Part shown: piece after piece, positions 8,875-13,981 of the stretch
How the letters are laid out: every line of letters begins with the position of its first letter
Position numbering within the stretch: position 1 is the stretch's first letter
Assembly (NCBI GenBank): GCA_016926735.1
Contig: JAFGOA010000199.1
Location: 1 to 24,893 of the forward strand
Source of the DNA: Promethearchaeota archaeon
GTDB taxonomy: Archaea > Asgardarchaeota > Lokiarchaeia > Sigyniarchaeales > SOKP01
Direction of reading: 5' to 3'
Length of the DNA stretch: 24,893 nucleotides
Notes under the pieces: model-generated
Told to the model about the DNA's origin: nothing
Database searches by the model: none
Seen by the model: only the letters and a program-made list of their open reading frames with translations
Made by a program: the position numbers and the translations under genes

Positions 8875-8925
8875 CACTTTTGTTCCAAAGATCTATGGGA
8901 AAAACTACCCAAAAAATTGTATAAT

Positions 8926-8933
8926 TTTAAATA
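8926..8933 (+). promoter_or_regulatory. Candidate TATA box (TTTAAATA) for the leader-ilvE transcript
   Basis: Lies at -30 to -23 from ATG 8956, the usual archaeal spacing for a leaderless or short-leader start. The AT-rich background weakens this. Confidence 0.3.
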
Positions 8934-8955
8934 AAATATAGGATTGATATAATTA

Positions 8956-9045
8956 ATGACCTTAATGAATACTAAAACGGAAAAAAATGTTTTTAACTAT
9001 TTAGCTGTAGCTCTAGCTGCCGCTATCGCCGTAGTAGTATTCTAA
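8956..9045 (+). CDS. Putative leader peptide (29 aa, MTLMNTKTEKNVFNYLAVALAAAIAVVVF; alternative start 8965) upstream of ilvE
   Basis: Hand-translated. Codons at 9001-9039 are tta gct gta gct cta gct gcc gct atc gcc gta gta gta, i.e. 13 consecutive L/A/V/I. 21 of 45 nt in 9001-9045 are G/C inside a very AT-rich intergenic region. Stop is 148 nt before the ilvE ATG. Confidence 0.7.
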   Translation: MTLMNTKTEKNVFNYLAVALAAAIAVVVF

Positions 9046-9148
9046 GTCAAGATAACTTTTCCTGACTTTTTCTAATAATTATTATTATGGATATTTTATC
9101 TTGATTTTTAAAAATGATTCTAATTAGCTAAGGTCAGGTAATAAAAGT
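9044..9148 (+). promoter_or_regulatory. Attenuator-like structured leader RNA with competing helices and U-tracts
   Basis: Complementary segments: 9044-9049/9063-9068; 9044-9055/9096-9107 (12 bp, 1 G-U); 9061-9069/9130-9138 plus 9055-9060/9143-9148. U-tracts at 9057-60, 9067-71, 9094-97 and 9105-09. Confidence 0.55.
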
Positions 9149-9193
9149 GCTTGTGTATAAAGGTCAATTCAATAATGAAGATGTGAAAAAAAA

Positions 9194-10234
9194 ATGCAGG
9201 CAAATGAATTAAAAATAGAAATAGATTTTAACAAACTTGGATTTGAAATAGTCCAGACAGAATGGATGTACGTCTCATATTTTAAAGATAATAAATGGGA
9301 TGATGGAAAGATAATGCCATATGGACCGATAGAAATATTCCCTTCAGCAAATATTTTAAGTTATGGACAAGGGATTTTTGAAGGACTAAAAGCATTAAAA
9401 TCAAAAGATAATCATATTTTGCTTTTTCGTCCAATTGAAAATGCAAAAAGATTTAATATAAGTGCTGAGAGACTTGCTATGCCCAGTTTCGATAATAATA
9501 AATTTCTAAAGGCAATTGAAGAAGTTGTTTTATTGAATAAAAAATTCATACCTCCATATAACAGCGGAGGTGCATTATATATACGTCCAATAATGATAGG
9601 TAGTGGTCCAATGTTAGGTGTTGCTCCAGCAAATGAATTTATGGTTATGATTTATTGCTCCCCTGTTGGATCTTATTTTAATGCAGAAGGTTCAGGAATA
9701 GAGCTTTTAATTTCTAAAAAATATACACGTTCTAGCCAAGGAGGCACTGGTTATTCAAAGATGTGTGGAAATTATGCAGGAATATTGAAACCAGCAAAAG
9801 AGGCAAAAAAATTAGGATATGATGAAGTTATATACTTAGATTCAATACACATGAAATATATTAGTGAAGTTGGAGCAGCAAATTTTTGCACAATAATTGA
9901 TGGAAAACTCGTGACTCCTAAAAGAGATGGTACTATTCTTGAAGGAATTACTTTGAAATCAGTTCTTGATTTAGCAAAAAAAGAATTAAAGATACCTGTT
10001 AGAGAAAGAGATATCTCATATGAAGAATTGTTTAAGCCTAATTGCACAGAAGCATTTTGTACAGGAACAGCAGCAGTTATTACTCCAATTGGTTCGATAA
10101 CTTATGGAAAAAAAAGAAAAGAATTTAATAATAAAGAACCGGGAGAAATTACAAAAACAATATATAACCTTCTAACAAGTATTCAGAGATTGGATAAAAA
10201 AGATAAATATAACTGGGTTGAGATTTTAGAATAA
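9194..10234 (+). CDS. ilvE: Branched-chain amino acid aminotransferase, group II (PLP fold type IV)
   Basis: LSYGQGIFEGLKA, LFRP..NAKRF..SAERLAMP, LYIRP, LGVAPA, GTGYSKMCGNYA (PLP Lys), EVGAANF, ILEGIT, TGTAAVITPIG. Confidence 0.95.
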   Translation: MQANELKIEIDFNKLGFEIVQTEWMYVSYFKDNKWDDGKIMPYGPIEIFPSANILSYGQGIFEGLKALKSKDNHILLFRPIENAKRFNISAERLAMPSFDNNKFLKAIEEVVLLNKKFIPPYNSGGALYIRPIMIGSGPMLGVAPANEFMVMIYCSPVGSYFNAEGSGIELLISKKYTRSSQGGTGYSKMCGNYAGILKPAKEAKKLGYDEVIYLDSIHMKYISEVGAANFCTIIDGKLVTPKRDGTILEGITLKSVLDLAKKELKIPVRERDISYEELFKPNCTEAFCTGTAAVITPIGSITYGKKRKEFNNKEPGEITKTIYNLLTSIQRLDKKDKYNWVEILE

Positions 10235-10242
10235 CTCAGTTC

Positions 10243-10251
10243 TTTTTTTTT
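10243..10251 (+). terminator. Oligo-T terminator candidate after ilvE
   Basis: T9 run 8 nt after the ilvE stop. Confidence 0.5.
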
Positions 10252-10338: not shown

Positions 10339-12174
10339 ATGTCCAATTTAAAAAGAAGTAACAATAATACCAAGGTTGAGTTTTCAATAGAAAATGATCC
10401 TTTTATCAATTTTAGAGATAAATCTCCCTCAAGATGGATTTTAGCTCATATTTTAAATGGCTCAAATAAAACCAATATTTGCATTGTATTAATCACAACT
10501 ATAATTGCTGCGATGTTATCATCTACACTAATGATAATTGTGGGTGAAACCATAAATGACTTGCTATTAGGTAAGGAATCTGCTCTTTTAATTAATATAT
10601 TGCTTATATTGATTATTGGAATAGGAGCTCCATTAATGCGAATAGGGAATTTTATGCTCAGAGAAGTTATTGCACAACGTATAGAAAGAGATACTCGAAA
10701 AGAATTTTATCTTAATTTACTAGGTAAGAGTCAATCCTTTCATGATCAGCAAAAGATTGGAGATTTAATGGCAAGAACTACAAATGATGTAAGAATGTTA
10801 AATTATTTGATTAGTCCTGCTCTTTCCCTGATTATTGAATCATTCACTTCTCTTATTATTCCACTTGGATATATTGTTATATTTTACCCTCCAGAACTCG
10901 TTATAATTCCATTGATATTTATCTTTACATTTATTGTAGCTCTAAGAGATTATATTAAAAAAATCGGACCAATAACAGAGAAATTAAGAGGGGATTTTGG
11001 AGAAATGAATATCGTTCTTAATGAATCTATTTCTGGTATAACCCTTATTAAAAGTACAGTACAAGAAGCAAGAGAAAAACATAAATATTTAATGACAATT
11101 AAAGGTTATAGAGATGCATTTGTAGAGCAAGGGAAGGTACAAGCAAAATATGTACCTATTCTCTTATTAGCATTGATGAATACAGTTAGTTTAGCTCATG
11201 CAATTATATTATTTCTAAATAATTCGATGACAATAGGTCAAATTATTGGATATTTAGGTTTGTTATCAGAATTTAGATTTCCAACATTTATATCATTTTT
11301 TGTATTTGCTATTATAAAATTAGCAGGAGCAGGTGCAAAACGACTTCTTGAATTAATGAATAAAAAGACAGAAATTGATGAAAATTTAGAAGGGGAATCA
11401 AGGAAAATAATTGGTAACATTGAATTTGAAAATGTATCTTTTTACTATCCAGGATTTAAAAATAGAGTTCTCCAAAATATATCTTTTAAAATAAAACAAG
11501 GCCAAACATTAGCTATTGTAGGAACAACAGGTTCGGGAAAAACAACACTTACTAAGTTAATTACAAGATTATATGATGTTTCGGAAGGAAGAATATTAAT
11601 AGATAATATAGATATTAGAAAGTATATCTTAAAATCTTTAAGAAGTCAAGTTTCATATATTGAACAAGATGTTTTTTTATTTTCTAACTCTATTATAGAC
11701 AATATTTCTTTTGGGAAAAAAGCATCATTCGAAGAAGTAAGAAATGCAGCTATACTAGCACAAGCACATGATTTTATCTCTTCCTTACCTAAATCTTATG
11801 ATTCTGAAATTGGAGAACGTGGAATTCAATTAAGCGGAGGAGAGCGACAAAGAATAGCATTAGCTAGAGCATTTTTAGTTAATCCTCGAATTTTAATTTT
11901 AGATGATTCAACTTCTGCTATAGATTCAAAAACTGAAGATGAAATTCAAAAAGCTATAAATAAAATCGAAGAAAATAGAACAACTATAATTATTACCCAT
12001 AGATTATCTCAAATAAGATGGGCGGATCTAATAATTGTATTAAAAAGTGGTAAAGTGGTAGCTCAAGGCACTCATGAATACCTAATTGAAAATTCACCCG
12101 AGTATCGAAAAATTTTTATCAAAAAATTTGATTTAGAAGAAGATAAATTAATAACCAGGAGTGGAAGGAAATAA
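10339..12174 (+). CDS. ABC exporter TMD+NBD half-transporter, subunit A of a heterodimer
   Basis: N-terminal TM domain (GDLMARTTNDV); Walker A GTTGSGKTT, signature LSGGERQ, Walker B ILILDD (non-canonical), switch ITHR. Confidence 0.95.
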   Translation: MSNLKRSNNNTKVEFSIENDPFINFRDKSPSRWILAHILNGSNKTNICIVLITTIIAAMLSSTLMIIVGETINDLLLGKESALLINILLILIIGIGAPLMRIGNFMLREVIAQRIERDTRKEFYLNLLGKSQSFHDQQKIGDLMARTTNDVRMLNYLISPALSLIIESFTSLIIPLGYIVIFYPPELVIIPLIFIFTFIVALRDYIKKIGPITEKLRGDFGEMNIVLNESISGITLIKSTVQEAREKHKYLMTIKGYRDAFVEQGKVQAKYVPILLLALMNTVSLAHAIILFLNNSMTIGQIIGYLGLLSEFRFPTFISFFVFAIIKLAGAGAKRLLELMNKKTEIDENLEGESRKIIGNIEFENVSFYYPGFKNRVLQNISFKIKQGQTLAIVGTTGSGKTTLTKLITRLYDVSEGRILIDNIDIRKYILKSLRSQVSYIEQDVFLFSNSIIDNISFGKKASFEEVRNAAILAQAHDFISSLPKSYDSEIGERGIQLSGGERQRIALARAFLVNPRILILDDSTSAIDSKTEDEIQKAINKIEENRTTIIITHRLSQIRWADLIIVLKSGKVVAQGTHEYLIENSPEYRKIFIKKFDLEEDKLITRSGRK

Positions 12175-12175
12175 A

Positions 12176-13981
12176 ATGGCATTTATTGGTTTAGATGCTG
12201 AAAAATATGATAGAAAATATAATGATATAGATTTATTTAAGAGAATCTATAAGTATTTTAGAATCTATAAAAGGAAGATTATGATTGTTGTATTATTATT
12301 GACAATTGCTTCATTAATAGAATCTTTCCTTCCTATTTTAATAACATTAGCTCTAAATTCATTACAAACAGGTCTAAATACACAATATTTAGTAACGATA
12401 ATAATTATTTCGCTGTTTTTTAATGCTTCAAGTTTTATAATCAATTACTTTCAACAAATAAATATATCAAAGGCTATTGGAAATGTTATTTTGGATATAA
12501 GAAAGGAAGCAAATGATTCTATACTAGAACATGATCTATCCTTCTTTGATAAAAATCCTTCAGGTAAAATAGTTAGCAGGATTAATACCGATAGTCAAGA
12601 ATTTGGGAGAGCTTTAGAATTATTTATGGAAGTTCTTTCCAGTGTTTTTATCGTCATTTTTTATACTTTCATAATGTTTTTCCTAAATCTTTTCTTATCA
12701 TTAATTTTTATGATAATGATCCCTGCTTTTTTTATAGTAGCTATATTATTTATGAAAGCTGCTAGAAGGAGAACATTATTAGGTCAAAGAGCAACAGCAT
12801 CCGTAAATGCTTTTGTTAAAGAAACCTATTCAGGAATTCAAATAGCTAAAACATTCAGTCAAGAAAAGAAATTATTTAATAGATTCGATCAGGTGAATCA
12901 ACAATCATATAAAGTAAATTTAAAAAGAGCATTTCTTCTTAATACAATATTTCCATCTTTGGGATTTATTCAAGCATTTGTTCTTACTCTAATTATTTAT
13001 TTTGGAGGTATTAGTTTTTTTGAGGGTTCTATTCCTATTGGAAGTCTAAATTTATTTATACAAGGATCTTGGTTATTGACATTCCCTATTTTTTCAATTG
13101 CATCGTTTTGGCCACAATTACAAGCAGGATTAGCGTCTGCAGAGAGAATATTCTCATTAATAGATACAAATCCAAAAGTAATTCAGATAGATAATATTAA
13201 GCCTAAGAATTTTAAGGGAAAAATAGAATTTAAAGATCTTACATTTGAATATGAAGATAATAAAAAAGTTTTTGAGAATTTCTCGCTATCTATAGAGCCT
13301 GGTGAATCAATTGCAATTGTTGGCCACACTGGAGCAGGAAAGTCAAGTTTAGCAAATTTAATCACTAGGTTTTATGAATTTCAATCAGGAGATATATTGG
13401 TTGATGGATTAAGCATTCGGAAGTATGATCTATCAGAATACAGAAAAAAGATTGGAATTATTTCTCAAACACCCTTTTTATGGGGAGATACTATAGAAAA
13501 TAATATCAGATATTGTTGCAAAAATGCATCTGAGACTGATATATTGGATTCATTAGAAAAAACAGGGGGATCAGAATGGATAGATGATTTACCGAATGGT
13601 TTAGAAACAAATATAAGGGAGAGAGGTACATTACTTTCTATGGGACAACGTCAATTAATTGTATTAGCAAGAGTATTACTAGAAAATCCATCAATTTTAA
13701 TTCTTGATGAAGCAACAGCATCAATAGATCCGTTTACAGAAACTAAGATTCAAGAAGCACTAGAAAAAGTAATTAAAAATAGAACTTCAATAATAATAGC
13801 CCATCGTTTATCAACAATCCGTCATGTAGATAGAATTGTTGTTTTAAAAAAAGGTAAAATTGTAGAAGAAGGAAATCATCAATTTTTAATGAGCAAAGGA
13901 GGATTGTATGCCAAGCTATACAACACTTATTTTAGACATCAATCATATGAATATCTTGAAAAAATTAAAGAATTAAAATAA
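12176..13981 (+). CDS. ABC exporter TMD+NBD half-transporter, subunit B of a heterodimer
   Basis: GKIVSRINTD; Walker A GHTGAGKSS, signature LSMGQRQ, Walker B ILILDE, IAHRLST. ATG 12176 (1 nt after the previous stop, purine-rich GGAAGGA upstream) preferred over GTG 12161. Confidence 0.95.
   Translation: MAFIGLDAEKYDRKYNDIDLFKRIYKYFRIYKRKIMIVVLLLTIASLIESFLPILITLALNSLQTGLNTQYLVTIIIISLFFNASSFIINYFQQINISKAIGNVILDIRKEANDSILEHDLSFFDKNPSGKIVSRINTDSQEFGRALELFMEVLSSVFIVIFYTFIMFFLNLFLSLIFMIMIPAFFIVAILFMKAARRRTLLGQRATASVNAFVKETYSGIQIAKTFSQEKKLFNRFDQVNQQSYKVNLKRAFLLNTIFPSLGFIQAFVLTLIIYFGGISFFEGSIPIGSLNLFIQGSWLLTFPIFSIASFWPQLQAGLASAERIFSLIDTNPKVIQIDNIKPKNFKGKIEFKDLTFEYEDNKKVFENFSLSIEPGESIAIVGHTGAGKSSLANLITRFYEFQSGDILVDGLSIRKYDLSEYRKKIGIISQTPFLWGDTIENNIRYCCKNASETDILDSLEKTGGSEWIDDLPNGLETNIRERGTLLSMGQRQLIVLARVLLENPSILILDEATASIDPFTETKIQEALEKVIKNRTSIIIAHRLSTIRHVDRIVVLKKGKIVEEGNHQFLMSKGGLYAKLYNTYFRHQSYEYLEKIKELK

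Follow-up and report, generated by a model that had tools for sequence, protein, structure and literature searches.

A conserved leader open reading frame with structured RNA as a candidate amino-acid sensor for a branched-chain aminotransferase gene in an Asgard archaeon

Leader-peptide attenuation is a textbook bacterial mechanism that relies on ribosomes closely trailing RNA polymerase. Among its enterobacterial forms are the branched-chain attenuators ilvL (of ilvGMEDA), ivbL (of ilvBN) and leuL (of leuABCD) (reviewed in PMC1262725, PMC2965389). Here we describe a locus of similar layout in the forward strand of contig JAFGOA010000199.1 from a Promethearchaeota archaeon (assembly GCA_016926735.1), the whole analysed stretch of 24,893 nucleotides (nt) being called the window, in which a 29-codon open reading frame (ORF) stands in front of ilvE, a branched-chain aminotransferase gene. 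Comparison across related genomes makes it likely, if not assured, that region 8925-9193 is a cis-acting, amino-acid-sensing leader of ilvE. Very probably the leader lets ribosomes gauge amino-acid supply in a way published for bacteria alone, and full-text literature searches found no paper describing leader-peptide attenuation in archaea. As in ilvL, ivbL and leuL, the 5' leader carries a short ORF closing on a codon run that matches the amino acids of the operon, helices overlap the ORF end, a U-run lies 5' of the structural gene, and both multivalent (ilv) and single-amino-acid (leu) versions occur. In contrast to them the archaeal mRNA is seemingly leaderless and without a G+C-rich terminator hairpin, its U-tract sits in a hairpin loop and within a pseudoknot, a helix called P0 closes the ORF, leuS (the leucyl-tRNA synthetase gene) and catabolic genes are among the targets, Ala codons come first in number and no Rfam family is matched (covariance scan of 8956-9193, Leu_leader and Trp_leader included, even at E up to 10). 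The terminator hairpin by which enterobacterial attenuators are defined is absent from the archaeal leader.

Bacterial leaders of other kinds invite comparison too. In tnaC, the Rho-dependent leader of the E. coli tryptophanase operon, free Trp is sensed in the ribosome tunnel. With the coupling model set out below it has in common a leader peptide, a catabolic amino-acid enzyme switched on when the amino acid is plentiful, and a ribosome at the stop codon that decides the access of a factor to the polymerase; the archaeal leader, however, would sense tRNA charging by its codon runs, and the proposed factor would be FttA/aCPSF1 and not Rho. Leaders of bacterial aminoacyl-tRNA synthetase genes include the pheST leader (pheM) and the T-boxes, the latter binding uncharged tRNA directly and without an ORF. 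Comparable with these are Leu-run leaders before leuS in the archaeal family described here, which would so gauge the cognate amino acid of the synthetase gene, although no UGGN-type motif conserved in the two GGUCA boxes of the archaeal RNA was seen by eye, and a T-box-like site for the tRNA 3' end was rejected on that ground. The leaderless start of the ilvE leader recalls the mycobacterial polycysteine short ORFs, themselves leaderless, whose runs of the cognate Cys codon report supply to the genes behind (bioRxiv 10.1101/834739), and its alanine content recalls the alanine-responsive upstream ORF of whiB7, with a response tied to alanine starvation (PMC10274678). The likeness is that of a short upstream ORF reporting the supply of one amino acid, and the difference is that both are bacterial and of another RNA architecture, with no conserved pseudoknot reported.

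The ORF itself was first picked out in a sequence-only reading of the window, and its basic features hold up: it is where that reading put it, with the Ala/Val/Leu/Ile tail described, and the coordinates give the same 148 nt gap between the end of its stop codon and the ilvE ATG. The tail forms a G+C island (0.46 in 9000-9049 against 0.06-0.30 in the flanks), and its codons include GCC twice, CTA, ATC, three tandem GTA and TTC, among them codons that are rare in the long ORFs of the genome (GCC 6%, ATC 11%, CTA 11%). Upstream of the ATG is a TATA-like box, and over the 49 family loci introduced below such hexamers begin at −34 to −29 from the leader ATG in a sharp peak; since this is the archaeal spacing for a transcript that starts at the ATG, the mRNA probably begins at or beside the leader ATG and would be leaderless or nearly so. 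Scans for tRNA and transfer-messenger RNA in the leader region found none. No RNA run was listed as covering the locus, and three metatranscriptome runs of the same study gave no contig over 8700-10300, which has no bearing on expression.

The sequence-only reading had asked whether relatives carry such an ORF upstream of ilvE. They do: a small ORF of 26-37 codons, always in frame, precedes the orthologous ilvE at 17 loci in five genera. Orthologues in three other species of the genus have the same small ORF in the same place, differing by 3 nt in length and with T, E and N changes in the tail, while the RNA past the stop is near-identical; more distant ilvE copies in two further genera are also preceded by one. 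A covariance model, R1, built on the RNA from 12 nt before the stop to the second GGUCA box and with a 7-base-pair (bp) helix as its sole structural input, gave strong matches in seven genera over 135 genomes of the family, at no more than three per genome. Once further loci had been added 51 matches were aligned, 49 with a callable ORF and two without. At all 49 an ATG-initiated ORF ends at the modelled stop with the frame open for at least 26 codons upstream, whereas the other two frames reach 19 codons in only 33% and 0% of loci, a difference beyond chance. The leader ORFs span 20-38 codons and 14 different lengths, always in frame, two longer calls outside this range probably starting at an internal ATG. 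A gene of the same direction always follows directly 3' of the element (one locus apart, to which we return), and in most loci the target ATG lies 10-40 nt past the end of the RNA element. A second R1-type element was not found in the source genome at E up to 1, nor was any match found in 14 genomes of a neighbouring family (f2), where divergence may explain the result, which is no proof of absence. Degenerate pattern searches returned true relatives at zero or one mismatch only, matches at two mismatches being mostly chance by a reversed-pattern control.

What the codon runs spell depends on the gene behind them. Besides the ilvE loci, R1-type leaders precede leuS (five loci, two genera), an acyl-CoA dehydrogenase gene (three loci), an ABC exporter gene and a gene for a pyridoxal phosphate (PLP)-dependent decarboxylase (one locus each) and a gene for a small uncharacterised protein of 41-52 residues (at least 12 loci, four genera). 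In the last 12 residues ilvE leaders average Ala 5.2, Val 2.5, Ile 1.5 and Leu 1.7; leuS leaders Ala 0.4 and Leu 7.4; acyl-CoA dehydrogenase leaders Val 6.3; and small-protein leaders Ala 0.1, Val 4.8 and Leu 5.2. The Ala richness to which the sequence-only reading drew attention is thus particular to the ilvE class, the means of the leuS, acyl-CoA dehydrogenase and small-protein classes being at most 0.4. For eight of these 12 codons the composition is independent of the search model, since only the last four lie inside R1. The sensing codons extend right to the stop in all family members. Had the tail been kept as a membrane helix, hydrophobicity and not residue identity should have been conserved, a point which that same reading had raised. 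In the family the residue identity follows the target gene, and D, R, E, N and K occur within the tails with the Ala/Val/Ile/Leu content kept; such charged and polar residues, together with leaders of just 20 codons, argue that the tail is not conserved as a membrane helix.

The leader RNA is folded around this ORF in a manner that is also conserved. Across the family P0 joins codons 4-8 to the final sense codons and some of the stop; its perfect stems average 10.6 bp where shuffles give 6.8, and its sequence changes along with the codon class. Because its 5' strand complements Val and Leu codons, P0 would explain the Asn/Thr-rich N-termini of the leaders, and it is consistent with the codon preference of the leaders (GTA 85% against 39% genome-wide, TTA 79% against 53%). 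Helix A follows, of 12 bp in the window and 10-16 bp in the family, where it starts inside the stop or 0-3 nt past it; its core is 94% paired over 54 aligned loci with both sides changed in six of seven pairs, one of them occurring as U-A 17, A-U 11, G-C 11 and C-G 2 times. The overlap of the stop with the 5' arm of a helix followed by U-tracts had been noticed from the letters alone, and is there, with U5 runs at 9067-9071 and 9105-9109. A predicted H-type pseudoknot arises through S2, by which the loop motif of helix A pairs with the purine tract and first GGUCA box 50-70 nt downstream, the two GGUCA boxes lying about 30 nt apart. S2, which R1 did not include, is nonetheless 78% paired, and its pairs interchange among U-A, U-G and C-G. 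Over the full structure pairing reaches 80.7%, compared with 72.8% in shuffles (none of 500 as high) and 45-62% with partners slid. Since the helices covary, selection acts on the leader RNA and not just on the DNA. In an alternative fold segment a'' replaces the 3' arm of helix A and extends S2 to make one long hairpin, the minimum-free-energy fold of the window RNA; its complementarity across the family is modestly above chance (6.7 bp against 5.4 in shuffles) and weak in the window itself. The features are collected in the table.

Table. Features of the ilvE leader and its target gene (window coordinates)
Feature	Position	Strand	Basis or remark
TATA-like box, 22 nt 5' of leader ATG	8925..8934	+	family-wide spacing peak
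Leader ORF, 29 codons and stop (ATG to TAA)	8956..9045	+	frame kept in relatives
P0 5' strand, codons 4-7, pairs with 9035-9042	8967..8974	+	fold; stems longer than shuffles across family
Candidate sensing codons, final 14 codons: 6 Ala, 4 Val, 2 Leu, 1 Ile, 1 Phe	9001..9042	+	composition kept across 17 ilvE-linked leaders
P1, G+C-rich hairpin formed by Ala/Val/Leu codons	9002..9025	+	fold; compatible same-genus changes by eye
P0 3' strand, last sense codons up to stop	9035..9042	+	fold; family stems
Helix A 5' arm, begins inside stop codon	9044..9055	+	fold and covariation
Conserved helix A loop motif with U-tract (9067-9073); 5' strand of S2	9061..9073	+	alignment
Helix A 3' arm; second U5 (9105-9109) after it in source genus	9096..9107	+	fold and covariation
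Purine-rich strand and first GGUCA box; S2 3' strand, 9133-9138 pairs with 9061-9066	9126..9138	+	alignment
Segment a'', alternative partner of distal helix A 5' arm (long-hairpin alternative)	9143..9153	+	fold
Second conserved GGUCA box, 21 nt 5' of ilvE ATG	9159..9172	+	alignment
ilvE, type II branched-chain aminotransferase, proposed controlled gene	9194..10234	+	PF01063; NF009897, TIGR01123
T9 tract, 8 nt past ilvE stop, probable unit terminator	10243..10251	+	T5 enrichment after genes

How these parts might act together turns on the U-tract. Oligo-U is the ordinary gene-end signal of the source genome, since T5 tracts occur at 0.31-0.47 per 10 nt in the 0-50 nt past the stops of long ORFs against 0.045 inside genes, and a T9 tract follows ilvE; it is a gene-end signal in other archaea also. 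On the coding strand T5 is about 8-10 times commoner 0-50 nt past long-ORF stops than inside genes and A5 is not so enriched, which is the usual signature of archaeal U-tract terminators. In the leader the conserved U-tract starts 21 nt past the stop in 24 of 49 loci and at 21-25 nt in 37 of them. No hairpin able to serve a terminator was found 5' of it, a hairpin with U5 (helix A) occurring in the source genus alone, and no pairing that would work as a terminator throughout the family was found. The reading proposed from the sequence alone is partly supported. Its core, a leader whose Ala/Val/Ile/Leu codons would gauge amino-acid supply for ilvE as they are translated, has strong comparative support. 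The RNA is not a classical terminator/antiterminator pair; in place of one there are a long hairpin and a pseudoknot without a G+C-rich terminator hairpin.

As a sensor the leader likely works as follows. The promoter would start an mRNA at or beside the ATG of the 29-codon ORF, whose last dozen or so codons (Ala, Val, Ile, Leu) would be the gauge, the pace of the ribosome being set by the charging of the matching tRNAs. P0 would clamp the ORF, and the stop would open helix A, the loop U-tract of which would pair with the downstream purine tract as a pseudoknot. For the switch itself we favour, tentatively and with an appreciable doubt attached, a model in which coupling at the U-tract is the decision and ilvE is on when amino acids are plentiful. 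Because no hairpin precedes the U-tract and its pairing partner is transcribed later, only a ribosome or a protein could act on a polymerase there, and because the distance from the stop to the tract is fixed, a ribosome at the stop would touch a polymerase sitting on the tract. By bacterial figures a ribosome with a stop codon in the A site covers about 10 nt beyond it, the polymerase encloses 14-18 nt of RNA, and in collided expressomes the P site and the active site are about 34 nt apart. With the decision placed 21-28 nt past the stop, a ribosome that keeps pace might push or shield the polymerase, or keep a termination factor off the RNA, so that ilvE would be transcribed; one held on hungry Ala/Val/Ile/Leu codons would leave the polymerase alone and termination would ensue. 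ilvE would thus be on when Ala, Val, Ile and Leu are plentiful, since it is the delayed ribosome that leaves the polymerase to terminate. The pseudoknot would then fold on read-through transcripts and hide the U-tract. An on-when-plentiful sign suits a catabolic aminotransferase and the catabolic or export targets of the family, namely the acyl-CoA dehydrogenase, the PLP decarboxylase and the ABC exporter.

Several observations weigh against this model or against the sensor that it presumes. The match of codon class to target amounts to about five ancestral pairings and not to 50 independent events, because leader and target have been inherited together by kin, and what is seen would be a handful of old pairings maintained by selection. 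The Ala codons also give hairpin P1 its G+C, so that a part of the Ala richness could be structural. The U-run is broken by C in about a fifth of members (C-G in 11 of 54 at one S2 pair), and it may therefore be the pairing and not oligo-U itself that is conserved. Conservation of the RNA is highest past the place where the decision is supposed to fall, in a part to which the coupling model gives a secondary role. For leuS, which the family also targets, being on when amino acids are plentiful is an odd logic. In the source genus helix A with U5 resembles a classical terminator, and that would reverse the sign. Lastly a TATAAA hexamer at 9156-9161, 38 nt 5' of the ilvE ATG and overlapping the region just 5' of the second GGUCA box, could supply ilvE with a secondary promoter of its own in the genus, where it is present, although it is not conserved in other genera.

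The opposite sign deserves a hearing of its own, and although we regard it as unlikely it is the rival which fares best. The same sensor would then work as in bacteria: a ribosome stalled on the last codons or the stop would cover the 5' arm of helix A and turn ilvE on in starvation, and quick release would let helix A fold and, in the source genus, form a hairpin-plus-U terminator together with the U5 run of 9105-9109. That helix A starts inside the stop codon, that U3-U5 follows its 3' arm in four same-genus copies and that the sensing codons reach the stop in all members speak for this device; the sign would fit leuS, and ilvE too were it biosynthetic, and leaders of leuA type, treated below, have a long hairpin directly past the stop with U4 next in some loci. 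However the U-run after helix A, the second U5 included, is not conserved outside the source genus, the consensus terminator scan found none (0 terminator-like sites in the leader region in the bacterial-type promoter/terminator scan, the sigma-70 matches of which were discarded as meaningless in an archaeon), and archaeal termination is not known to need hairpins. An acyl-CoA dehydrogenase, a decarboxylase and an exporter switched on by starvation would also make little sense.

Alternatively the leader peptide might sense but act after transcription, the position of the ribosome picking the pseudoknot or the long hairpin and so setting the translation of ilvE or the life of its mRNA, for example where a fold blocks a 5'-3' nuclease or hides a U-rich site. 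We think this improbable. In its favour the most conserved RNA (helix A, S2 and the two GGUCA boxes) comes after the U-tract and ends mostly 10-40 nt before the target ATG, and some of the family have a third segment able to take the place of the helix A 3' arm. Against it stand the weak support for a'' in the window itself and nested folds of 40 loci, in which the ribosome-binding site of the target had a mean unpaired fraction of 0.62 when free and of 0.54/0.55 with a ribosome at the ORF end, with no consistent direction of change, the pseudoknot being outside the model.

Two further readings, each very improbable to our minds, do away with the sensor. In one the ORF is a stand-alone mini-gene for a small hydrophobic peptide, a membrane micropeptide or one like a type I toxin, that ends at a U-tract terminator of its own, while ilvE is driven from a separate promoter. 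The hydrophobic tail, the likeness of an ORF followed by T5 to an ordinary small gene of the source genome and the TATA-like hexamer ahead of ilvE all lend themselves to this, and long 5'-3' pairing like P0 is known from type I toxin mRNAs. But an uninterrupted hydrophobic helix of some 18-20 residues is not present, charged and polar residues breaking the tails and some ORFs having 20 codons in all; it is residue identity and not hydrophobicity that tracks the neighbouring gene, the element always stands directly 5' of a co-directional gene, helix A and S2 span the supposed terminator, and the internal TATA is not conserved. In the other the ORF is incidental, the leader being either a structured, riboswitch-like non-coding RNA or a protein-binding one with operators for a DNA-binding regulator at the GGUCA boxes. 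Strong nucleotide conservation with covariation, and the two boxes at their spacing of about 30 nt, speak for it. A frame open at 49 of 49 loci over 14 lengths with the other frames closed, an ATG at a fixed distance from the TATA box and codon runs specific to the target speak against it, as does the covariation, which points to selection on RNA and not on DNA alone. The element as a mobile repeat was rejected on the same evidence as these rival readings.

As for the gene itself, the ilvE product matches Pfam PF01063 and, both above their cut-offs, NCBIfam NF009897 and TIGR01123. Two ilvE paralogues occur in the source genome. A quick tree groups the family's leaderless ilvE copies in a single, fully supported clade that does not include the leader-linked ones, and the leader therefore belongs to one of two ilvE paralogue lines. 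One ilvE-type Ala-rich leader (L076; G007:C178:13783-13931) lies about 3 kb from the ilvE of its genome and faces a convergent gene of 467 residues, with no co-directional target nearby, and may be a displaced or decaying copy. In the window two ABC exporter genes (10339-13981) follow 3' of ilvE and, because of the T9 tract in between, probably have their own promoter; in a sister species an exporter of 51% identity has its own leader of the R1 RNA family (L080, G001:C6).

The small-protein class has some peculiarities. Behind its Val-run and Leu/Val-run leaders come a strong Shine-Dalgarno site and the conserved protein of 41-52 residues, which lies 30-50 nt past the RNA element at 11 loci (L059, L062, L064, L068, L070, L074, L081-L083, L086, L090) and occurs at four others (L073, L077, L093, L098); Pfam gives no match to this protein, which bears an LDYT(R/K)F-like motif and frequently ends in AW, and a class I/II aminotransferase gene converges on its gene in three genera. 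Leaders of 20-25 codons in two genera, g2 and g5 (L092, L094, L095, L096), precede a different ORF of about 65 residues with a Lys-rich tail, and these leaders adjoin the same convergent aminotransferase.

Leaders of another build occur in the same genome. On the minus strand of contig C146 (12122-12220; L100:1759-1857:-) an ORF of 32 codons, 12 of them Leu and with the Leu run at its end, lies about 95 nt 5' of leuA, the 2-isopropylmalate synthase gene (L100:54-1664:-; NF002085 above cut-off); a motif screen of the source genome for further leaders yielded this differently built leuA leader alone. Leu-run leaders precede leuA in eight genera of the source family and in the second family, f2; the families f3 and f4, which are G+C-rich, yielded none. 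Unlike the R1 elements, these leaders combine a Shine-Dalgarno-like start with nested hairpins past the stop, where a long hairpin comes directly and is followed by U4 in some loci. Elsewhere in the source genome are four actin-family (PF00022) genes, on contigs C4, C125, C100 and C202, the best scoring 443 bits across almost the entire profile, which fits an Asgard archaeon.

New here are the covariance model R1, the pseudoknot and P0 as a clamp, a distance between stop and U-tract that is fixed, an Ala/Ile/Val class linked to one ilvE paralogue, and the range of targets. For annotation, dozens of unannotated mini-genes are flagged, and the leader-linked ilvE copy is marked as a separately regulated enzyme, perhaps tied to alanine. 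A wider proposal, rather doubtful as it stands, is that the family runs its second ilvE, leuS, an acyl-CoA dehydrogenase, an exporter and the small protein through a riboregulator of new build, in which a leaderless ORF would be clamped by P0, coupling would be the switch and the pseudoknot the lock. Were that so, no attenuator before it would have been known to operate through coupling in place of a terminator hairpin, and the case would come from the archaeal lineage closest to eukaryotes. If the target-matched family is real, coupled transcription-translation would be used for regulation in relatives of the eukaryotic ancestor, and the leaders would offer a natural handle on archaeal U-tract termination and FttA-type factors as well as compact amino-acid-responsive parts for archaeal genetics.

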